Source: Pedobacter sp.
Lineage (GTDB): Bacteria; Desulfobacterota; Desulfuromonadia; Desulfuromonadales; Syntrophotaleaceae
Direction: 5' to 3'
Assembly (NCBI GenBank): GCA_050253415.1
Contig: JBFWJC010000005.1
Location: forward strand, 1 to 64,000
DNA: 64,000 nucleotides
A model generated the notes under the pieces. That model searched no databases. It was given only the letters and a program-made list of their open reading frames with translations, and was not told where the DNA came from. The stretch's first letter is position 1; each line of letters opens with the position of its first letter. Shown piece after piece: positions 2,154 through 49,383 of the stretch. The translations under genes were made by a program, and so were the position numbers.

Positions 2154-2319
2154 TGATTTGTCTTTAAATTAACTAAACAGCATAAAAATATATTCGTCAA
2201 GGAGATTTATTAAATCCTAAATCGTCCTTGGTTATCTAGCCACTCCTGATATGTGCGGCCCGACTGCTCAATATATCGTTCCATATTGTTTTCAGCGGTC
2301 AGATGTGGTTAAAGACCAG

Positions 2320-2350
2320 ATTCTTATGGATCCTGCAATGCGAGAAAAAC
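2320..2350 (+). repeat. Module junction J2 (core, hairpin lost)
   Basis: ATTCTTA-tggatcc-TGCAAT-GCGAGAAAAAC; upstream 2222-2296 resembles 11566-11650. Confidence 0.85.
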
Positions 2351-2401
2351 TCTCTAAACATGACAAACGTGAATTCAGCCCCCCCAGGCTATCCGGGTTT
2401 C

Positions 2402-3256
2402 AAAAGGGAAGTCAGAACCACCACCTGTAGAGGGCTGTCGAGCCCAAAACAGGAAGTCAGAACCACCATCCCAGCACAGTTGGCCCTGAAAGTGGGAGTC
2501 AGAGCTACCACTTCGGCTACGCATTGTTTGTCGCGCTCTTTAGAAAGTCAGAGGTTTGCGCATAAGTTGTCGCGTTCATTAAAGAGGGTTAGGTGCAAAT
2601 AATATACATTTTTGTATACAACATTTATGTATACATATTTTCCATGTGATTTTAGAGGCCTATATTTCCGAGGCGGGAGTCAGTACAACCGGTTTCTCTA
2701 CGCATAGGTTGGCTGAGAGCCGGGTGGTTACGCATAACTTGTCGCGCTCAGCGGCTGATACTGAAAAAACGTGAAGTCAGTACCACCACCCCTTGGGCAT
2801 TTCCGATCCCCTATCTGGTAGCAAGAACCACCTCCTCAGACCCGAGCTCCAAAAGGGAAGTCAGAACCACCACCTTGGGCGGCTCAGCCCTCCAATCGTG
2901 GAGTCAGAGCTACCACTTCAGGCCGATCAACCTCCAAATGAGGAGTCAGAACTACCACCCTGGACGATCTCAACTCCAATCGGGGAGTCAGAACTACCAC
3001 CCTGGACGATCTCAACTCCAATCGGGGAGTCAGAACTACCACCCTGGACGATCTCAACTCCAATCGGGGAGTCAGAACTACCACCCTGGACGATCTCAAC
3101 TCCAATCGGGGAGTCAGAACTACCACCCCAAGCCGTCGATTCGGACAATGTGGGTACCAGGACTACCACCCAGGCCTCTAATCCGGTCAAACGTGAAGTC
3201 AGAACCACCATCCTGAGGCCATTGTTTGCCTAAAGTGGGAGTCAGAGCTTCCACCT
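2402..3256 (+). repeat. Non-coding array of about 42-43-bp-period repeats, motif (AAAGTG)G(A/G)AGTCAGAAC(C/T)ACCAC; array 1
   Basis: GTCAG cores at 2411, 2456, 2498, 2776, 2860, 2903, 2945, 2987, 3029, 3071, 3113, 3198, 3241 plus degenerate copies; four identical 42-bp units at 2942-3109. Confidence 0.92.
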
Positions 3257-3340
3257 TGGCTACGCATATACGGACGACACCCGGACAAGGTTCGGAGTAA
3301 CGTCCTAAGGGTCTGATAGGGGGTCTGATAGGGGGTAGGG

Positions 3341-3417
3341 GGTCCGATAGAAGCTGCATTGCGAGAAAACCCCGTCTGGCGAACCAGACGGGGTTTCTGT
3401 GTTTTGGAACTTGTGAT
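3341..3417 (+). repeat. Module junction J3
   Basis: GGTCCGA-tagaagc-TGCATT-GCGAGAAAACCCCGTCTGG-CGAA-CCAGACGGGGTTTC-TGTGTTTTGGAACTTGTGAT. Confidence 0.9.
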
Positions 3418-3434
3418 TTATGGGAAATAAAATA

Positions 3435-4937: not shown

Positions 4938-5602
4938 CAGGATTCTTCCCCGGTCAATAGTCTTAGCACTCGATCATAACAGTCGGGCCGGCTTATGATA
5001 ATGAGGCGATCCCCGCCGCGGAGGAATGTTTCCCCTCGGGGAACGATGACGTTCCCGTCACGCAGGATCCCACCGATCAGTGCCCCTTCGGGCAAGGTCA
5101 TGTCACGCAAGGTTTTATCCGCACCCGGTGCATCCTCCCTCAAGGCGACTTCGGAAATAGTTACGCGTCCCTCGGCGAGGGGAATCAGATTGGCGATATC
5201 CTCGAATCCGGCCCGTTCTTCCAGGATGCGGGCGATAATTTGGGTCGAACTGAAGGCGACGCTGACACCCAATTCACGGAATACCTCCTCGTTCTGCGGA
5301 TCGTTGACAAGGGCTACCGTCCGCGGCACATGGAACATTTTGTGGGCGATCTGACATACCGCAAGATTGTCCTGATCCTTCGATGTCAATGCCACCAACA
5401 CATCGGCGAGGCGTGCGCCGGCTTCTTCGAGTACATGGGGATCGCTACCATTACCATGCATGACCAAGGCCTTAACCCGGCGGGAGAGGTTTCTGGCCTC
5501 CGCTTCATCAGCAAGGATCAAGGAGACCACATACCCTTTGCTGGCGAACTGTCGGGCAAGGTAATAGAGGAGTTTGCCGGATCCGACGACGATCACACGC
5601 AT
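4937..5602 (-). CDS. trkA: TrkA/Ktr regulatory subunit (RCK_N + RCK_C)
   Basis: Start re-set to MRVIVVGSGKL (RBS AGGAGG); Rossmann GxG motif; C-terminal IVPRGETFLRGGD. Confidence 0.9.
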   Translation of the reverse strand: MRVIVVGSGKLLYYLARQFASKGYVVSLILADEAEARNLSRRVKALVMHGNGSDPHVLEEAGARLADVLVALTSKDQDNLAVCQIAHKMFHVPRTVALVNDPQNEEVFRELGVSVAFSSTQIIARILEERAGFEDIANLIPLAEGRVTISEVALREDAPGADKTLRDMTLPEGALIGGILRDGNVIVPRGETFLRGGDRLIIISRPDCYDRVLRLLTGEES

Positions 5603-6048
5603 GGTTGACCCTCCTGCCTTTTTTCCAGGCTCGCCAGAAAGGCCTCCGCCATCAAATTGGTCGGGCTGACGGTTTCTATGTCGAATTCCCGATAAATTCC
5701 CTCCCTGCGGGGATCGAATACCCTCGCCAACACTTTGGGGACATTGAACACCTTGCGGGCTACCTGGGCCACCATAAGATTGACATTGTCCTCTTCGGTA
5801 GTCGCTAGCAGACAATCGGCCCTGTCGGTTTTCGCGGCCCGCAAAACCTCGATTTCGACCGCATCGCCGACGATACGGAATCCACTGAATTCAGCCGTCA
5901 GCAGATCAAACGCCGATTCGTTGATATCAATGACGACCACGCTGCAACCGACTTCGCTTAGTAGCCCCGCCAGCATGGAGCCGAGTCGGCCACAACCAAC
6001 GATCACTACATACTGTGGCCATCCATCCTGCTTTTTCAAATACATCAT
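5593..6048 (-). CDS. trkA: TrkA-N (RCK_N-only) protein
   Basis: VVIVGCGRLG, GDA, ATTEEDNVNL; no RCK_C. Confidence 0.85.
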   Translation of the reverse strand: MMYLKKQDGWPQYVVIVGCGRLGSMLAGLLSEVGCSVVVIDINESAFDLLTAEFSGFRIVGDAVEIEVLRAAKTDRADCLLATTEEDNVNLMVAQVARKVFNVPKVLARVFDPRREGIYREFDIETVSPTNLMAEAFLASLEKRQEGQPCV

Positions 6049-6051
6049 TGA

Positions 6052-6729
6052 TTACTCCTGCCCCAGCAGCAGAGGACCCGTTTTTTTCATCACCAACCTG
6101 TTGAGGTTGCTCTGGGACGGTATATATCCGGGATTCAGCTCCAGAGCGGTCCGGTAGAATTTCTGGGCTTCGAGGGACTTGCCCTGCATCTCACAATAGG
6201 CTCCCATAAGATTAAAGGCCTCCGGGCGATCGGGTTCAAGGCCTGTAGCATACCGGGCGTGGGCAATCGCATTGCCGAGTTGCCCCTCTGCGGCACAACG
6301 CTTGGACAAGGCGATCCAGCCATTGTAATCGTTACCCGGATCCGCTCCCTGTTCAGGACGGCTGAGCACCTTGCGGACCGCGTCCCGCAACTCCCGTGGC
6401 GCAAACGGTTTTTCAATAAAATCCAGAGCGCCTAGCTTCATGACTTCCACCGCATTGGTCACCGTTCCGAATGCCGAAATGACAATAACCTGGGATCGCC
6501 TGGGTCTTTTTTCCAATTGCCGCAACACTTCCACTCCATCGATACCCGGGAGCTTAAGATCAAGCAACACCAGATCGAAATTCTCTTCGGCCGACATGCG
6601 CAAACCTTCCTCGCCCGTGGTTGTGGTACGCACCTCATACCCCTTGGGCTCAAGGGTTTGCCGGACGGTGAAGAGGATGTTTTTTTCATCATCAATAACG
6701 AGAATTTTTGCCTTGGTCTCTTTAGACAT
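6052..6729 (-). CDS. Response regulator with C-terminal TPR
   Basis: ILVIDDE, LLDLKLPG, EKPF; TPR-like PEAFNLMG...YRTALELNP. Confidence 0.88.
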   Translation of the reverse strand: MSKETKAKILVIDDEKNILFTVRQTLEPKGYEVRTTTTGEEGLRMSAEENFDLVLLDLKLPGIDGVEVLRQLEKRPRRSQVIVISAFGTVTNAVEVMKLGALDFIEKPFAPRELRDAVRKVLSRPEQGADPGNDYNGWIALSKRCAAEGQLGNAIAHARYATGLEPDRPEAFNLMGAYCEMQGKSLEAQKFYRTALELNPGYIPSQSNLNRLVMKKTGPLLLGQE

Positions 6730-17353: not shown

Positions 17354-17896
17354 CTACCCCGTTAACCCTACGAGAAGAATGGGAGCAGTTAGAACCGGAT
17401 AAAAATTCTCGAGATACCATTTTGCTATTTCATATACGACCATGGAGTTTCCGTCTTTGGGTGAAACAATTTTTGCAAAATCCTTAGTGGGGCAGATGTA
17501 GACCCCCACATTGATCACGTTTTTTACTTCTGCCGCCGCCTGCAACCTGAGAAGGTCACCACCGATAAAAGAGCGGTGATTGAACGCCACATCGATACCA
17601 ATGTTACGCTTCCAGAAGTCAATTGCGAGATCATTGCCAGAGTCGTTAAAGACATTCTTTTCAGTTTCCCAGCCGCGAGTCCCGAACTCTTGTCGGAATA
17701 ACGCATTAATGGTTGACTGTTTACCTTGAGCTTCCCGCTTGCCTAACGCAATACGCCGTTGATTTTCATCCGCAAACTCTTTTAAGACGGTTTCGAATGA
17801 GATAGTACCGATTACTTCGTCAATCTCTTGTTTAAGTGCGTAATCAGAGTTGAGGATAATGTCGGCAAATCGATGTGGGAATGTTTGGTACTGCAT
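17354..17896 (-). CDS. BglII/BstYI-like restriction endonuclease-fold protein (cassette)
   Basis: QSTINALF...GWETE...IDFWK...IDVAF...DLLRL...INVGVYI pattern. Confidence 0.7.
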   Translation of the reverse strand: MQYQTFPHRFADIILNSDYALKQEIDEVIGTISFETVLKEFADENQRRIALGKREAQGKQSTINALFRQEFGTRGWETEKNVFNDSGNDLAIDFWKRNIGIDVAFNHRSFIGGDLLRLQAAAEVKNVINVGVYICPTKDFAKIVSPKDGNSMVVYEIAKWYLENFYPVLTAPILLVGLTG

Positions 17897-18030: not shown

Positions 18031-18879
18031 TTATTTTTGTTTAACCTTTTTTTCAATTAAAACTATAAGCTCTTTTGCATACTTCTCTGCCGATTCTTGA
18101 GTATTACAGTCCTTGGCTTTAACCCTTTCAACCAGCACCCCTTCGTCTTGGAAAGGCTTGATTCTATAATGGGCATCTGCTGGTGATTCCTTATGAAAGG
18201 CTTTGCCGTCAACCTCTACAAATAGGACTACTCCATCTTTCAAAAGGACAAAGTCGGGCTCGACCCTTGAAAAATTTTCCCCTCCAATTATGAACACTGG
18301 CAAAGGGGCAAATGGAATGCCCGTTTTTTTTAGTGCCTTATAAAGTAAAATTTCCGGTTCAGACCTAAATAACAAACCCTCATATTCAATTTTTGCGACA
18401 TTTCTACTGTGAGCACGACCTTGATTGTTTATTTCAGAATAATCTTTATTTTTGGATAGGCTAGGACTCAAAGGCTCTTTGGGAAGGGGCAGACCCTCTT
18501 CACATAATTGCAAGAGTTCATACTCATGATTTATTTTTTTAAGCTTGTAACCATCGAGGCACAAGTGTTCATTTAGAAAATTAACTGCGTCCTCTATGTT
18601 GAAACCAGTTCCAAGAAAGTGCCTTGGGTCTACTGCAGTTTCTATTACTTCCTTAAATATTTGTTTTCCATTCAGTTCTTTTAGTTTGTTTTCTGCATAT
18701 TCCCACCTTGATGGGAACGAGTTCCCATAAGTTTCATTAAGTCCGAATTGATTGAAAAATTCAACGAGAGCCGGGCCAGATCGATATGGGGCCAAGGAAC
18801 TGTCAGGGCGGACAGGGTCTCCAGTAATTAGTTTTTGTATCCCGGTAATTGTAAGATTATCTACTTTTACTGGATTCAA
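18031..18879 (-). CDS. Cassette protein: abortive-infection-type N-terminus fused to a Vsr/DUF559-like endonuclease domain
   Basis: YRSGPALVEFFN...YG..FPSRWEY; RSEPEILLY...EPDFVL...VEVDG..FH; TTG start after AAGGAG. Confidence 0.65.
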   Translation of the reverse strand: MNPVKVDNLTITGIQKLITGDPVRPDSSLAPYRSGPALVEFFNQFGLNETYGNSFPSRWEYAENKLKELNGKQIFKEVIETAVDPRHFLGTGFNIEDAVNFLNEHLCLDGYKLKKINHEYELLQLCEEGLPLPKEPLSPSLSKNKDYSEINNQGRAHSRNVAKIEYEGLLFRSEPEILLYKALKKTGIPFAPLPVFIIGGENFSRVEPDFVLLKDGVVLFVEVDGKAFHKESPADAHYRIKPFQDEGVLVERVKAKDCNTQESAEKYAKELIVLIEKKVKQK

Positions 18880-18893
18880 TTTATATTCTCCTT

Positions 18894-19270
18894 GGCTAAC
18901 AGAGATTAGTCGGATCCGCATAAGCCGCCAAACTCAAAGTTCCTGTCCGTCTAACACGCAAAAACAAATACCGGAAACACGACAACTTACTGTTATTACA
19001 TCGGATTCAAGTTGCCTAGCCACTTATTCAGGTGTCTTATGCGGACCCGTATAAAATGCCATTTATATATACCGAAATATGAGGTTTGCAGCTTTCCGAG
19101 TGCCAGTATGTGCGTCATCAAAACTCATGGTAGTCATAGGTAGGTCACATCTGTCTGCCCCCTGATTCCCGAACATCCTTCTCTTTAAAATTTCGATATT
19201 TAAACCTACTCCAATACTACTCAGGTCAGATTATCTGTCAAAGGGCTATTGGTCCTAAAAGTTGTTTCAG
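18894..19270 (-). other. attI-like site and cassette leader, copy 1
   Basis: Lone GTTAGCC core with no upstream R''; leader homologous to 27742-28115; first cassette ends in the complementary GGCTAAC. Confidence 0.75.
19214..19241 (-). promoter_or_regulatory. Candidate Pc-like sigma70 promoter for the cassette array
   Basis: TTGACA-N16-TAGTAT pointing into the array. Confidence 0.5.
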
Positions 19271-21852: not shown

Positions 21853-22312
21853 CCCTGCAACCGGAACACTTAAGCGATTATCCCTATCAGGAAGGAGCGG
21901 CTTTGCGCTAAGAACGTCTGGAAAGTCTTGCCTGACAACAGGGGGAGGGGTTTGTTTAAGGCCTGCTAGTTGGTTTTGATCCGTATAGGCAGCACTAAAA
22001 AACCGGGGTCGAATCAGAATTAATCCGTTTTGAATAGATTCTTGAATAGATACTTTTGCTAATTTCACATGTGTTTCAAGTGGGTTGAGTCTTTTCCTGA
22101 ATAGATACTTGAATAGATTCAACCTGTCAATTGGGCGGGAAGACCTCGAGCTCCAAAAAACCTGCAAAGTGGAAGTCAGCGCTACCACCACGGGATTTGA
22201 CCAGCCCGGTGGTGGTGGTTTTGACTTCCACTTTGTCGGAGACTTGCCGGAAGATGGTGGTTCTGACTCCACCTTTGTCTAGAACAGGCTCCGGGAGCGC
22301 CAACTTATGCGT
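21853..22312 (+). repeat. Non-coding element B, copy 1 (starts at junction core J10)
   Basis: Colinear with 28163-28579; starts at CCCTGCAA; TGAATAGAT direct repeats and inverted copies of the GTCAG motif. Confidence 0.9.
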
Positions 22313-22356
22313 AAACTCTCGCCGCTCCTTGGGGGTGCGATAATCTACCGTAGCTG

Positions 22357-23006
22357 AAGTGGAAGTCGGAACCACCACCTAGGGACCCGGTCGCCCTCAA
22401 ACTGGAAGCTAGAACCACCATCCTCAGCTCCGTTGGCCCTGAAAGTGGGAGTCAGAGCTACCACCTTGGCTATGCATATACGGATAAAACCCGGTCAAGG
22501 CTGGGGCGTTACGCATAGCTTGTCGCGCCTCGTGAGTAATCTGCAGTCGCGCATAACTTGTCGCGTTCAAAGGCTCATATCGCAAAACGTGGAGTCAGAA
22601 CTACCACCCAGACCACTAATCCGGTCAAACGTGAAGTCAGAACCACCATCCCGGGCTTCCTCTGATTTCAAAAGGGAAGTCAGAATCACCACCTGGGGAT
22701 CCGGGCCCTCAAACTGGAAGTCAAAACCACCATCCCAGAGCCAGATCCCGCAGAGAGAGGGGGCAGAGTTGCAACTTCAGCTACGCATAAGTTGTACCGC
22801 TTCGAGCCCGAATATGCTGTAAAAGCAGCTAATTCGCTCCGCTGCCGTCTAAAGTGGGAGTCAGAACTACCACCCTCGGGTCGCGGAAATCCAGGCAAAG
22901 CGGGAACCAGAACTACCACCCAGGCCGCCAATCCGGTCAAACCTGAAGTCAGAACCACCACTTCGAGGTCATTGATTGCAGAAAGTGGGAGTCAGAACTA
23001 CCACCT
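22357..23006 (+). repeat. Non-coding 42-43-bp-period repeat array 2
   Basis: Motif cores at 22365, 22408, 22451, 22594, 22636, 22679, 22720, 22860, 22948, 22991 plus degenerate copies; spacers related to array 1. Confidence 0.9.
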
Positions 23007-23135
23007 TGTTTTCGCCTAAGTTGTCGAACCCGGTGGAGGCCGGAGGTTGCGCACGAGATATAAGGCATTGCACCGAGTTTGGGCGCGTTACGCACAATTT
23101 ATTGTGCACAAGACATACAAATCAGTCACCCATTT

Positions 23136-23192
23136 TGGCTTATTAAGCCTAAAATACGAGAAGGGCCCGACCTTTTTTTAGGCGGGTCTTTC
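23136..23192 (+). repeat. Degenerate module junction J11
   Basis: TGGCTTA-ttaagcc-TAAAAT-ACGAGAAGGGCCCGACC...GGCGGGTCTTTC. Confidence 0.55.
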
Positions 23193-24646: not shown

Positions 24647-25705
24647 CTATCCAGCTTTGTGCATGGCGTAGCGGGTCGGGTAAGTGGATATAATTTTAAG
24701 AACTTCTGCCTCTGAGAAAACTTCACAAGCAGCATGATACAGCTTATCGATGATACGGACACCGCCGTATATGTCCTTCATTTGCAGACAATAATCGACA
24801 TGGCTATCACTTCGGCCCTGAACTTCCATTGCTCTTGCATGTAAGCCTTTCCCAAATCTGTCGACCCTAGCCCAGGAAGGGTGCTTGCCCTTTTTTAAGT
24901 ACTGCGACAAACTTTTTTCCAGGCCCTCTTTGCTAACGGCGTCGGGACTATTCCCCCCTCCTTCATCGTCAGAAATTCCGGCCTCTCCAAAATGGTCGAC
25001 CATCTCCTGAACAAATTCGTCCGGGGCTAATTGCAATGATTTCATCCATTTTTGGAAGAATATGCTTGATGGTGAATCGATGGCCCCGTCCGCCCCTCTT
25101 GCGGGAATTACTTTTGAAAGGATCGATTCATGGTCCGAAGAATAGAGACCCATATATTCTGACTCTGCAAAAGAGAGAAGATAAAGAACGCTTTCCAAGA
25201 AAATGCGGTAAAGGGGCTTTTTTAATTCTTTGTCGTTTCTGCATTTCTGGACCAGATCTCCGACCGAGGAAGGCTCTAGACAATAGAGGGGGACGATCTC
25301 ATCAGCCAAATATCTCCGATAGGCGGAAAATCGATCATCCAGGGCTAGAGGCTGAATTTGTTTTATGAAAGAGATATCTTTGTCGGCAAATTCATAAATG
25401 AGGTGGTAGGTACGGGGTAAGAAGTCATCTTCTTTTTTTTGAATGGATTCCAGAAACGTCTTCCAGGAGATGGGGACCTCGTACCTTTGATCATAGATTT
25501 CATCAGGGATATTAAATCCCTGCTCCCGGAACTGGTATTCAAACTTATGGGAGATTGCGGGTGGGAAAGACTTTCTTTTCAAATAGGTTTGGATTTGCCG
25601 GGTGGACAGATCTGCGGCCAGGGAAAGGCCAACGGTAACGGCATTGCGGTATTTGATTCCGAGAAAGTCTTCAAGGAGAATTTCGGGGGTTATGGTCAGG
25701 TACAT
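24647..25705 (-). CDS. Hypothetical protein
   Basis: 352-aa ORF with no recognisable motif. Confidence 0.7.
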   Translation of the reverse strand: MYLTITPEILLEDFLGIKYRNAVTVGLSLAADLSTRQIQTYLKRKSFPPAISHKFEYQFREQGFNIPDEIYDQRYEVPISWKTFLESIQKKEDDFLPRTYHLIYEFADKDISFIKQIQPLALDDRFSAYRRYLADEIVPLYCLEPSSVGDLVQKCRNDKELKKPLYRIFLESVLYLLSFAESEYMGLYSSDHESILSKVIPARGADGAIDSPSSIFFQKWMKSLQLAPDEFVQEMVDHFGEAGISDDEGGGNSPDAVSKEGLEKSLSQYLKKGKHPSWARVDRFGKGLHARAMEVQGRSDSHVDYCLQMKDIYGGVRIIDKLYHAACEVFSEAEVLKIISTYPTRYAMHKAG

Positions 25706-28162: not shown

Positions 28163-28579
28163 CCCTGCAATCCGGAACACTTAAGCGATCATCCCTACCA
28201 GGAAGGAGCGGAACGGCTGGACAGTCTTGCCTGACAACGGGGGGAGGGGGTTGTTTAAGCTCTCCTAGTTGGTTTTGGTCCGAATAGGCAGCACTAAAAA
28301 ACTGGGGTTGAATCAGAATAAATCCGTTTTGAATAGATTCTTGAATAGATTCTTGAATAGATACTTTTGCTAATTTCACCTGTGTTTCAAGTATGTTGAG
28401 TTTTTTTTGAATAGATAATGAATAGATTCAACCTGTCAATTCTGCGGAAGAGCTCGAGCTCCCAAAAAACCTACAAAGTGGGAGTCAGTGCAACCACCAC
28501 GGGATTTGACCAGCCAAGGGGTGGTGGTTCTGACTCCACCTTTGTCTAGAATAGGCTCCGGGAGCGACAACTTATGCGT
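28163..28579 (+). repeat. Non-coding element B, copy 2 (starts at junction core J14, ATTCTTA-cattccc-TGCAAT at 28152-28171)
   Basis: Colinear with 21853-22312; lacks one inverted GTCAG unit and has one extra 12-bp TGAATAGAT unit. Confidence 0.9.
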
Positions 28580-28764
28580 GAGCTTCCGGCTAACATTCCG
28601 TCACATATGGGCAAGGCCCATATGTTTCCTAGCGGCTTTGGCGTCTATAAGGCAGTTGGAAAAAAACTGTTTTTCTGTCTGGGCTCAACGGGGGAGGTCG
28701 GTAGTTTTAACCCCCTTAAAAATTGCTGAGTTTACACTGGCAAGGCTCAGTAGAAAAAGTGGCT

Positions 28765-29097
28765 TTATCGAGGTCCGTTATTTTCTGATTCCAGGTCGGA
28801 TACATACAAACGGACCCCATTTACGGCCAGGATTTGTTCACTATATTTGTCCCAACTCTCTCTAGCCAAGTCCTGAGCTTCAGCATGATCATGAATCAAG
28901 TAATCGAATTGCAGACAGGCTAGATCTCGATAGTGCCCAAGAGGGATCTCCGGATCTTTGGGAGCACTTTGGAAATAAAATATTAGCGTGTAGTCCGGGA
29001 ACCCTTTCCAACTGCACCAAATCGTATCGTTGACTAAACTGCAGCAAAATACACCTGGCAATCTAGAAAATGTGGTGGTTCTCATAAGATTCTCCAT
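28765..29097 (-). CDS. Hypothetical protein
   Basis: 110-aa ORF co-oriented with neighbours. Confidence 0.45.
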   Translation of the reverse strand: MENLMRTTTFSRLPGVFCCSLVNDTIWCSWKGFPDYTLIFYFQSAPKDPEIPLGHYRDLACLQFDYLIHDHAEAQDLARESWDKYSEQILAVNGVRLYVSDLESENNGPR

Positions 29098-29181
29098 GGT
29101 TCGAGTTCATTTTGGGCGTCCGTGACGTCAGGTTTTAAATGGCCATTTTCCCCCGTACATCATCTCTGGTTGAATCCACGT

Positions 29182-29934
29182 TTAGCTCTGCCAAATCTTT
29201 CCAGTATGAACATCGCAGCCCGTGAGTTGGCCCCCGGCGCCTGCCCCGGTATTCAATGATATTTCAAGCCTCTCCGTTCTCGGATGAAGAATCGGCGTAT
29301 GGCCATGCACGACGCATCTGTTCCAGCCGGTTTTGTATCTCCAAAACCCCTCTCTGCTCCATAGCAACTCATAGGGGTCCTGGTCGGCGATTCTTTTCCC
29401 AGAGGCTATCCCAGCATGCACAAACAAATATTGGTCAGATTCATACCAAAGCTTTGTTGAGGCCAAAAATTTAATGTGCTCCCTCGGAATGGTCTTCAAT
29501 GCCCTGCGGTAGGCGTCAAAGATCTGAGACTGGATCAGACCGTCATATGATTCAATGTCATAGCTCTTTAGCGTCAAATCCCCGTGGTTTTGAAACCATA
29601 GATGGGCGTGCCTGAACTCTGAGATGTCCATCCAGGCTATTTCGCGAGTCCACAATTCTGAAACGGTATAGAGTAAGGGGACGCCCGTTTTGACCGCGGA
29701 TTCAGTCAGGGCATCTAGAAATAATTGTTCATGATTGCCCCTCAGATAAACTGTTTGAGGGAATTGTTTTTGGAAATCGATCAAAAACTCGAGAACGCCG
29801 CGCGAATCGGGACCGCGGTCAATGTAATCACCAAGAAAAACCAACTGGTCTTTTGGGCAGGGATTGATTTTGGCTATGAGGTTCTTGAGTTGATCAATGC
29901 AACCATGAATATCGCCCACTGCGATCAATCGCAT
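29182..29934 (-). CDS. Metallophosphoesterase (PrpA / phage lambda phosphatase-like)
   Basis: GDIHG, GDYIDRG, GNHE, HAG, HGHT motifs. Confidence 0.92.
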   Translation of the reverse strand: MRLIAVGDIHGCIDQLKNLIAKINPCPKDQLVFLGDYIDRGPDSRGVLEFLIDFQKQFPQTVYLRGNHEQLFLDALTESAVKTGVPLLYTVSELWTREIAWMDISEFRHAHLWFQNHGDLTLKSYDIESYDGLIQSQIFDAYRRALKTIPREHIKFLASTKLWYESDQYLFVHAGIASGKRIADQDPYELLWSREGFWRYKTGWNRCVVHGHTPILHPRTERLEISLNTGAGAGGQLTGCDVHTGKIWQS

Positions 29935-29967
29935 ATTGCATCTCCCGATTGCCAATGGTGTGCGTCG

Positions 29968-30216
29968 CTACTTAAGCAAGCGGACTTTTTCGGAAAGGTC
30001 TCCGAGGATAATGGCCGCCAGTTTCTCCATGCCCTCCGAACGGATGTGTAATACCTCCCCCTCTGTTATTTTGCCGCTTTTAGAATTTTCTGCCTTATAA
30101 CGGTAAATATGTTTTCCCAACGTGTCGTACCAACTACCGCTTTGGGGCCCGCAATTATGGCCATATACGTTCACAATTTCGTGATTGTTTATCGCAATCT
30201 TGATGGAAAAGGGCAC
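29968..30216 (-). CDS. Small hypothetical protein
   Basis: GTG start after GGAGG; 82 aa. Confidence 0.5.
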   Translation of the reverse strand: MPFSIKIAINNHEIVNVYGHNCGPQSGSWYDTLGKHIYRYKAENSKSGKITEGEVLHIRSEGMEKLAAIILGDLSEKVRLLK

Positions 30217-30877
30217 TTTGAGGTCCTCCAAAAAATAGAATGACTTTAGAATCGATGAAATCCAAAGGCACTCCAGGGAAGGCAATTTTTGGTGTCTGTG
30301 GCTTTTTAGCGGGCCGTTCCTAGTCTGTGAAAGGTCTCCTAGATATGTTCAGGAGGCCATAACTTTCGCTGCAGGCGGCATGTAATCAGCCTCTGGGGCA
30401 GGGGAACGGTAGCCAAAATAAGCATTTATTCAGACTAGGTCGCATGCAGATTAGCTGTTTTTTGCGCAAAGGGGCGGGGACCCTTTTGGGAACAGGTATG
30501 GGCACACTTCTGGCGGATTGCGACCTCCCTGCCGCCTTCGGGGTGAATATGCTCCTCGACCAATGGCTTTTCTGGCCTTGTCCTCTGCCCCATAACCCTA
30601 TCAATGAAGGCTCCGGAAATCAAGGGGGGTGAATTCAGAAAAACATAGTGAAACCAGGTTGTTATCTAACACTTTTGTTAGGTTGATATCCCGTTGCTGC
30701 ACACTGAAAATTCGAATATCTTTAAATAAGGAATCGCCTCGATACATTAACGTTGATACTTTGGCGACAAGAAAGGGGAGGGTGGGCAAAAGGCGAATCT
30801 CAACATATGCGGAAAAGTTGGGGTTCACCTTTTTGCTTATTTCAAGTTTTATAAATGGTTAGGCGGCAAAACCTTGG

Positions 30878-48388: not shown

Positions 48389-48424
48389 AAGCACGCATCT
48401 CAGCAATGCGATACCTTTGTCTCT

Positions 48425-48500
48425 TCGGCAGCTTGGCGATCCACACTTTGTGGACCCATAGCTTTGCGTCCCTGTATTGCTACAGGTTTGCTTTTATCGG
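48425..48500 (-). ncRNA. GEMM-I (c-di-GMP-I family) riboswitch, A20 variant
   Basis: Minus strand CCGATAAAAGCAAACCTGTA-GCAA-TACAGGGACGCAAAGCTATGGGTCC...GGATCGCCAAGCTGCCGA. Confidence 0.9.
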
Positions 48501-49383
48501 AAAACAATATGAAAATAGTTGTGGGCAAACAATGCCCTGTTTAATTACCTTTTTTTGTAAAAAAATAAGATTTAATAAAATCGAGTAACTTGGTCAGTTG
48601 TCAAACAATTGATCTTCACGTAATTTTTTAAAGCATACTTGTTTTGAAGAGACTAATTCTTATATTTCTTCAATTTTTCTGAATGTTAAAAATTGGAACC
48701 ATTTTATCTTAATCGGATTCAAGTGTCATGCTTTTGACTATTCTCTACATCCTAACAAACCTAATTGTCAAGGTTAAATGTTGAGGTTAGGGTGAGTGTT
48801 TCTCCGTTTTTCTGCGGGATCCATCGAATATATCTTGTTGGATAAGCCACCAAGTAGCCACAATAATTTATGCTTTTGGCGTCTGAAAGGTCTGAAGTCC
48901 TGTTAAACATTATTAAGTCCTTATTGAGTTTACCTTGGGCGATTCCGGTTTTTTAGGGTGAATTCGTTGGTTGGTCCTGTTATGTGATACGATTGTCGCG
49001 CGAGCCGTCCTTAAGCCGGGGGGGAGGATACTCTGCTTTTTACGCACCGGAGGCGCCCTAGGTCACCCAAGCAGCAAGATGTCAAAATCATCTCACCGTT
49101 ACGTCAAACATATTCAATCTCCTGTAATGCTAGAATATTACCTGATGATAGGCACTAATGATCGGAAAAATTCCACGCTACAGTTTGACAATTAATTGAA
49201 AAATGGCTTATAAGTTCAATGTGTACGTGGCAAAAACGCTGGCACGCAGCAGGTCCGGGAGGAAAATCACAGAGGATAATCCTGCTTGCTCTTCAGGCCA
49301 GGCGGGTTTGTAATGTCGCTTGTTGTCATCGATATTCATGCTCCTTCTTCGGTCTGAAGAAGGTTTTTTTGTTGGGAGAGGTC

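Follow-up and report, generated by a model that had tools for sequence, protein, structure and literature searches.

The stretch of DNA analysed here (the window, 64,000 nucleotides) comprises positions 1 to 64,000 of contig JBFWJC010000005.1 in the Pedobacter sp. assembly GCA_050253415.1, which its GTDB lineage places in the Syntrophotaleaceae of the Desulfuromonadales. The window carries a block of short repeats separated by variable spacers, called array A below, with the promoter side of a GGDEF-EAL gene on one flank and trkH, facing it with its 3' end, on the other. A preliminary description of the window had presented this block (2340-3360) as a non-coding module that looks like a CRISPR array without being one, and had suggested an iteron- or centromere-like protein-binding array, a decoy for the Rep or Par protein of an incoming element, or an array of processed non-coding RNA. 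We find that the block has relatives in the same assembly and in other genomes, and that in other lineages its core stands in phased rows behind the gene of a probable plasmid replication initiator (Rep). The reading we prefer, to which we give about an even chance, is that these are orphan iteron-type arrays, descended from a captured plasmid origin and multiplied inside accessory DNA.

Architecture of the arrays

Array A and its borders consist of the following features:

2319-2348 (+): left junction, a 30-nt stump of the dispersed element D1, ending in a 16-bp repeat, CTGCAATGCGAGAAAA (2333-2348)
2408-2511 (+): sub-array A1, three iteron-like units at 2408, 2453 and 2495
2518-2574 (+): two TACGCATAA..TTGTCGCG boxes of the kind that accompanies the arrays
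2575-2670 (no strand): AT-rich stretch between the sub-arrays, down to 15% GC per 40 bp, which resembles an unwinding element
2606-2635: 15-nt tandem repeat inside the AT-rich stretch
2676-2746 (+): degenerate unit (2676-2692) and box (2729-2746)
2773-3254 (+): sub-array A2, twelve units, with four identical 42-mers at 2942-3109
3255-3346 (+): tail of array A, with a box-like GGCTACGCAT and the start of G-rich 12-nt repeats (3309-3351; GGGTCTGATAGG twice and one variant) that lie between array A and D1
3340-3432 (no strand): right junction, a full D1 element, with the second copy of the 16-bp repeat at 3354-3369
3367-3396: hairpin with a 13-bp stem, which ends the minus-strand trkH gene

The motif GRAGTCAGAACYACCAC, searched with up to three mismatches, occurs 29 times in the window, where 0.31 copies are expected (standard deviation 0.61), and none of 100 shuffled sequences reaches this number; the repeat-spacer block is therefore real. 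Thirteen of the matches lie in array A, at 2408-3254, every one on the plus strand, and three further units of this array are degenerate (at 2676, 2818 and 3153). The grouping into three units (2408-2511) and twelve units (2773-3254), and the presence of four identical 42-bp units (starting at 2942, 2984, 3026 and 3068), are as previously described. Tandem Repeats Finder calls a repeat at 2847-3128 with a period of 42, 6.7 copies and 87% matches. Taking array A together with array B (see below), adjacent units are spaced 42.7 bp apart on average (standard deviation 1.2 bp, n=17), with eight intervals of 42 bp, six of 43 bp, and one each of 41, 45 and 46 bp. This is close to four turns of B-DNA, the period that had been proposed.

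In the 27 distinct units, the conserved part is made of AAA, three variable bases and an 18-nt core, and is thus longer than stated before. Mean pairwise identity among these units is 0.84 in the core and 0.30 at the centre of the spacer. The spacers, which had been taken to be simply variable, are indeed diverged, but they are not independent of each other: across arrays, the mean best score of 26 distinct spacers is 9.85, against -0.02 +/- 0.46 for shuffled spacers, and the spacer at 3127-3152 was found again in a contig from another genus (L013). Because the spacers are related across arrays and across genomes, the arrays have grown by duplication and not by acquisition.

The block is also not unique, a point beyond the preliminary description. 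Array B, at 22172-23004, comprises 14 units (two in minus-strand orientation), and module C contains an inverted unit pair spanning 28481-28537. In the rest of the 4.1-Mb, 18-contig assembly (denoted G000, with contigs such as C1, C2, C4 and C7), motif clusters are found only at C1:1395721/1395762, which is a copy of the inverted-pair module, and at C4:5007-5093, where there are three degenerate units. The corresponding features of the window are:

21912-22160 (no strand): AT-rich module with TTGAATAGAT repeats, conserved, with copies at 28211-28470 and from C1:1395413 on (repeat families D11 and D14)
22165-22313 (no strand): inverted unit pair 22172 (+) and 22212 (-), minus-strand unit 22254, and minus-strand box 22296-22313
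22362-23004 (+): main part of array B, eleven units in three blocks with boxes between
23005-23140 (+): tail of array B, 89% identical to C4:4722-4853
28481-28580 (no strand): module C, units 28481 (+) and 28521 (-), minus-strand box 28563-28580

Four of the 29 units in the window are on the minus strand, and three of these four are partners in inverted pairs. Folding energies of -38 and -44 kcal/mol are predicted for the inverted pairs (-43.7 kcal/mol for the pair within 22165-22313), and a U-run comes after them on the minus strand. The TACGCATAA..TTGTCGCG box, with eight matches in the window against 0.06 expected, accompanies all arrays. We considered that these boxes presumably resemble one arm of an Xer/dif site; no second arm is visible, and the idea was dropped.

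All these arrays are restricted to accessory DNA. In the closest relative trkH is 92% identical, yet neither D1 nor an array lies behind the gene, which marks array A as accessory. Genes for IS3 and IS30 transposases and for integrases adjoin other array copies, and the region of the window from 15 to 31 kb has a lower GC content and mostly minus-strand open reading frames (ORFs) without assigned function. The junctions of array A in the preliminary description are the D1 stump and the full D1 copy; the 16-bp direct repeat common to both brackets 1005 bp.

Related arrays and the adjoining probable initiator gene

Among 233 genomes of the order, searched with up to two mismatches, only G000 exceeds the reversed-pattern control; three motif matches in another genome, G015, are real on inspection. 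Two genomes from a different genus of the same family, L013 (the same as L074, from a Desulfuromonadaceae metagenome-assembled genome, or MAG) and L012, have small arrays of the same kind. A two-unit pattern retrieved eight loci from a metagenome collection, and in all eight, as well as in L052 (a Blastocatellia MAG), the sequence (G/T)(G/A)AGTCAGAACTACC is present in 8-10 copies per locus. In these nine loci, which we call Acidobacteriota-type on the basis of one record's name, one source name and the taxa given in the Atlas, rows of a 15-nt core are spaced at 22, 31, 32, 41 and 43 bp, which corresponds to two, three and four helical turns. One inverted copy of the core lies 68-100 bp from the row in six of the nine loci (none in L052, L176 and L178). 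The search pattern forced part of the Acidobacteriota-type match, but not the multiplicity, the phasing or the shared bases that adjoin the pattern.

Other scans added little to this set. An exact 17-mer scan of the genome_contigs collection returned at least 118 loci, with about 280 chance matches estimated, and among the matches listed only L052 and L074 hold related arrays. Viral sequence scans gave one two-unit match and one chance match in a coding repeat, and none for the Acidobacteriota-type unit. Two candidate loci were rejected: L046, where the periods of 48, 51, 63, 66 and 102 bp are all multiples of three, is probably a coding repeat, and L044 probably matches by chance, with two long REP-like palindromes (3001-3097 and 5213-5313) that have GTCAGAACCACCAC in their outer stems.

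In seven of the nine Acidobacteriota-type loci, the array is abutted by a gene for a protein of about 360 amino acids, or by the cut 3' end of this gene, and the array lies on the 3' side of it. In L176 the contig end cuts off the side where the gene is expected. In L178 (array at 5939-6162) there is no such gene on the expected side, and a 1545-aa RHS-repeat ORF begins there; this is a second orphaned array. ParA genes are found near the ~360-aa gene in L175 and L052, on different sides of it, and the array always follows the ~360-aa gene, which suggests that the array travels with this gene.

The ~360-aa protein has no match in Pfam at Pfam's own thresholds, and its family, 1247 proteins at E<=0.001, shows no Pfam domain among the 120 members listed. 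Searches with tblastn found matches to it in 1304 PLSDB plasmids; the best matches listed, with 37-42% identity over 88-90% coverage (E 1e-69 to 2e-64), are annotated as plasmid replication protein, and the plasmids with a homologue are mostly typed as conjugative. Twenty-two sequences gave an AlphaFold2 model of moderate quality (pLDDT 62.6). A Foldseek search with this model ranks domains 2-3 of RctB first (E 1.3e-8), followed by complexes of RepE54 and Pi with iterons, at low TM-scores (0.2-0.45), and the Atlas neighbours of the protein belong to RepA_C, RPA, TrfA and Rep3 clusters. Together, the plasmid matches, the predicted fold and the Atlas neighbours argue that the ~360-aa protein is an initiator. 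Judging by adjacency and architecture, the Acidobacteriota-type arrays can be read as the iterons of an IncA/C-related RepA family, and a large unnamed family of plasmid Rep proteins would thereby gain both a probable function and a probable binding site. The same core, standing in phased rows behind an iteron-type Rep gene in other lineages, lends independent support to the earlier suggestion of an iteron-like protein-binding array.

The IncA/C-type RepA plasmids offer the nearest point of comparison. One plasmid with a Rep of the same family as the ~360-aa protein, pAsa4c (L182), carries 23 copies of a 19-bp iteron behind repA (1-1080). Some ten of these copies form 38-bp tandem units, each made of the iteron and a GC-rich spacer, and others stand at distances of 22, 23, 30, 31 and 41 bp. 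Like iterons of this type, the present arrays have many direct copies of a core of 17-19 bp, arranged in tandem rows of core and spacer at nearly whole helical turns (38 bp in pAsa4c, 42-43 bp here), and the Acidobacteriota-type arrays that have the present core sit just 3' of a homologous repA. Unlike them, the arrays in this genome occupy several chromosomal loci, have diverged spacers and extra boxes, and no rep gene or exact DnaA box was found with them. For IncA and IncC replicons, the number of 19-bp iterons is given as 11-14 (PMC7433901). Plasmid RA3 (IncU) is described as having direct-repeat (DR) arrays whose units measure 38, 42 and 60 bp and have 11-16 bp in common; DR1 titrates RepB and causes incompatibility (PMC9455977). 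DR1 and DR2 resemble the present arrays in having units of 38-60 bp that share only a short portion. They differ in flanking their own repA-repB, and neither their sequences nor the RepB family is related to those studied here. Judged by pAsa4c, IncA/IncC and RA3, initiator-binding arrays are already known that repeat in tandem about every 40 bp and conserve only a short core, the rest of each unit being free to vary.

Possible origin and role of the arrays

In the orphan-iteron reading, each array would be a row of one 18-bp protein-binding core preceded by AAA, with sites about four turns apart, so that bound proteins would all be aligned along the same side of the helix. This core would be that of an uncharacterised plasmid family, related to IncA/C-type RepA, in which it stands behind the initiator gene, and a winged-helix Rep, or a protein of the same specificity, would be expected to bind it. 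The sites would have been orphaned at several chromosomal loci within accessory, repeat-rich DNA, and copied there as multi-unit blocks, with recent tandem duplication in addition. A captured plasmid origin may, further, be the ancestor of the arrays, and any effect that they have today might be exerted in trans on plasmids of that family, by titrating or handcuffing Rep.

A number of properties accord with this scheme. Several direct copies of a site in the 17-22-bp range are present (the 18-nt core), the spacing is in whole helical turns, and an AT-rich region lies beside the sites; its position between the two sub-arrays, together with its 15-nt tandem repeat, gives array A a layout similar to that of an origin. 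Units on both strands and inverted pairs are likewise seen in iterons and in Rep operators. In three genomes belonging to two genera the core is conserved although the spacers have diverged, an indication that it is still being read by something. Iterons are normally read together with their own initiator gene, while here conserved and recently amplified sites are found in a genome without a detectable initiator. If a protein does read them, they would make a simple test case for the effects that chromosome and plasmid may have on each other's replication in trans, be it exclusion, copy control or satellite replication.

There are also observations that weigh against it. A cognate rep gene, present beside the array in seven of the nine related loci, was found here neither beside the arrays nor elsewhere in the genome: profiles A1 and A2 detected nothing at E<=10 in the six translated frames of the assembly, and Rep3_N and RPA searches of the assembly had no match (a RepA_C search had none either, but its control matched nowhere, so it is uninformative). 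No ORF adjoining the arrays looks like a Rep in library and profile searches; the 352-aa and 241-aa ORFs gave nothing against profile A1, and the 352-aa ORF has unnamed clusters as its neighbours in the Atlas. It is possible that the cognate gene is carried by a plasmid that was not assembled. Within the order, a Rep of this family was detected in only 1 of 233 genomes, and the repeats there are of another sort: at the locus L183 (G113:C76; 2418-2726), this single homologue (E 1.9e-37) has direct repeats of its own behind it. There is no exact DnaA box near the arrays, and one-mismatch matches to the consensus occur at the background density of 2.7 per kb. The link to the Acidobacteriota-type arrays consists of a shared 15-16-nt core, which is itself the search pattern; the flanks differ, with AAA and three variable bases upstream here and a T-run downstream there, and the accompanying boxes have no counterpart in the Rep-linked arrays. 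The likeness between the core and the pAsa4c iteron is weak (10/16 positions ungapped, by eye). Finally, the inverted pairs also look as if they may be plain intrinsic terminators of minus-strand genes.

Among the other explanations, a CRISPR-like or other guide-RNA array is extremely improbable. The repeat-spacer appearance, with a conserved part alternating with a variable part, is all that recalls CRISPR; the conserved part is too short, just 18 nt plus AAA instead of near-identical repeats of about 23-50 bp, no Cas1 (PF01867) match was found in G000 by a search whose control was positive in 7 of 14 known genomes, the units stand in both orientations, whereas CRISPR repeats share one direction downstream of a leader, and the spacers, instead of being unique foreign acquisitions, show homology from array to array and from genome to genome. 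Comparison of array A with plasmid (PLSDB) and phage collections by blastn, a check proposed in the preliminary description, produced no match, which also counts against CRISPR. As far as sequence can show, then, the CRISPR identity is refuted, in line with the earlier view, and the combination of mutually related spacers, helical phasing and both orientations could serve as a rule for separating such arrays from CRISPR. It is scarcely credible, too, that the block is a gene for a protein with 14-residue repeats. An open frame of 146 aa does span 2793-3233 (ORFs of 80-146 aa cross array A), but of four ORFs within this interval two have no match in Pfam and two stay below the curated cut-offs (at best E 6.7e-05 and 23.1 bits, where 25 would be required), no frame survives unit lengths of 39, 41, 43, 45 and 46 bp, and an 18-nt core with free spacers is not a codon-like pattern of conservation; the block holds no credible gene, as had been said. 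We also think it unlikely that the sites bind some other DNA-binding protein of the island, unrelated to initiators, as a centromere, a regulator landing pad or the arm-type sites of a recombinase. Direct phased sites are indeed known from centromeres bound by ribbon-helix-helix proteins or ParB, the 352-aa ORF at 24647-25705 has, in our reading of its sequence, an HTH-like N-terminus, integrase genes lie beside the C4 copy, and a 16-bp direct repeat flanks array A. However, the arrays have no constant neighbour (the 241-aa ORF at array B and the 240-aa ORF at C4 are unrelated), the 352-aa ORF has no paralogue, and the match of the motif to the Rep-linked arrays would be left unexplained. The sopC centromere of the F plasmid consists of twelve 43-bp repeats, each with an inverted repeat, beside sopAB. 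The present array is similar to sopC in its tandem period of about 43 bp and in having about twelve units, and unlike it in that its motif is non-palindromic and no partition genes were found nearby; none of the 51 ORFs of the window has a Pfam match of the parA or parB type, which tells against the centromere-like function suggested earlier. What endures of the earlier interpretation is its non-CRISPR, non-coding and iteron-like side, as opposed to the centromere and the picture of freely variable spacers.

A further alternative is a long non-coding RNA with repeated single-stranded motifs, serving as a protein sponge of the CsrB/CrcZ kind or cut into unit-length RNAs; its plus-strand transcript would extend from the AT-rich region as far as the hairpin at 3367-3396. 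It could rely on a promoter-like site at 2639-2666 (+), on the T-rich tail of that hairpin, on the strong folding of the inverted pairs and on some spacer stems with G-T pairs that, by eye, would work on the plus strand only. We nonetheless find it unlikely, given that spacers fold no better than shuffled ones (mean z -0.45, n=18; -0.20 for the other strand), that Rfam has no match on any array at the gathering or the E-value threshold, that units are found on both strands, that a promoter scan is at chance (2 found, 1.4 expected), and that related arrays elsewhere accompany the gene of a DNA-binding initiator. Terminator matches around array A are likewise at chance level, and spacer hairpins with apparent compensatory changes, seen by eye, are not significant against shuffles and were discarded. 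A minor but tangible chance belongs to an inert relic or a selfish minisatellite, that is, the leftover of an integrated replicon or a non-coding mobile module read by no protein today, which slippage, unequal crossing-over and block duplication would maintain and enlarge. Recent slippage is indicated by the four identical tandem units, and spacers common to different arrays, a position in accessory DNA near IS3/IS30 transposase and integrase genes, the closest relative without an array behind trkH, and the failure to find a cognate protein all agree with this possibility. Against it, the core keeps an identity of 0.84 while the spacer centres are down to 0.30, and the same pattern of conservation is seen in the two genomes of another genus (L013 and L012); with the core spared and the spacers diverged, neutral decay alone is insufficient. 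Lastly, it is improbable, though worth stating for what it would mean, that the arrays are a non-coding plasmid defence, a sink for Rep or a means of handcuffing the initiator of an incoming plasmid, or else satellite origins without a Rep that are activated in trans by a helper plasmid. Initiator sites that act as sinks or signals and not as an origin are known in P1 incA, F incC and the RctB sites on the other chromosome of Vibrio cholerae, and some such copy-control sites lie on another replicon than the rep gene; unlike the situation here, where none was found, the initiator is encoded in the same cell in those systems. If the arrays were a defence, repeated encounters with plasmids would select for an intact 18-nt core in a genome without the initiator, and the blocks would spread in accessory DNA by duplication, perhaps also by site-specific insertion, as hinted by the 16-bp repeat around array A. 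As satellites, they would replicate only once a helper plasmid of that family enters the cell.

Other elements near the arrays

D1, which borders array A, is a dispersed element of about 60-93 nt, found at 11 places in the window as a GC-rich hairpin just 3' of minus-strand genes, and it looks like a shared terminator module:

D1 in the window: 107, 3340, 11225, 11674, 11733, 15335, 19306, 19875, 26420 and 30877, and the stump at 2319

More copies of D1 are found on C1, C2, C4 and C7, often close to contig ends. The possibility that D1 is an attC site was rejected, since the D1 elements in the window are terminator hairpins behind minus-strand genes. An integron cassette array was also rejected as an identity of the block: the integron integrase IntI at C1:1750302-1751246 has its own, different attC family. 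Besides the integrase gene (TIGR02249, 447.6 bits), this true integron of G000 has short cassettes on the plus strand over about 8 kb, and its array is cut off by the end of the contig (L138).

The AT-rich non-coding modules at 21912-22160 and 28211-28470 contain two to five TTGAATAGAT repeats at a spacing of about 11 bp, and, by eye, a promoter-like site of the TTGACA type on the minus strand. The second of them belongs to a duplicated unit of 2.5 kb, present in the window at 28164-30721, in the same assembly at G000:C1:1395413-1397955 (89% identity) and in a congener at G006:C1:22256-24792 (90%; L196). This unit contains the inverted-pair module and three minus-strand genes, one of them for a calcineurin-like phosphoesterase. 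The C4 locus (G000:C4:1-5130; L140) begins with a cut Phage_integrase gene, a gene for a 1021-aa Integrase_2 protein (PF13009) and the 240-aa ORF, followed by the array tail and then by the three degenerate units.

When the ORFs at 15-30 kb were compared with defence and annotation libraries, a BglII-like nuclease was found, along with only weak matches. The ORF for this BglII-like restriction endonuclease (E 7e-18) adjoins one with an AbiJ/Stk2-like N-terminus (17354-17896 and 18031-18921), and no methylase was identified. The weak matches, of PADLOC type, are AbiJ/Stk2-like, Aga nuclease-like (E 2.8e-4), JetC-like (E ~7e-3) and PDC-S10 (E 1.5e-4).

The window is also very rich in genes of c-di-GMP signalling. 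A c-di-GMP-I riboswitch at 2081-2155 (-; 62.9 bits) controls the GGDEF-EAL gene beside array A, and a second aptamer of the c-di-GMP-I class, a GGC variant, is found at 48423-48501 (-; 66.8 bits); both are located upstream of GGDEF or GGDEF-EAL genes.

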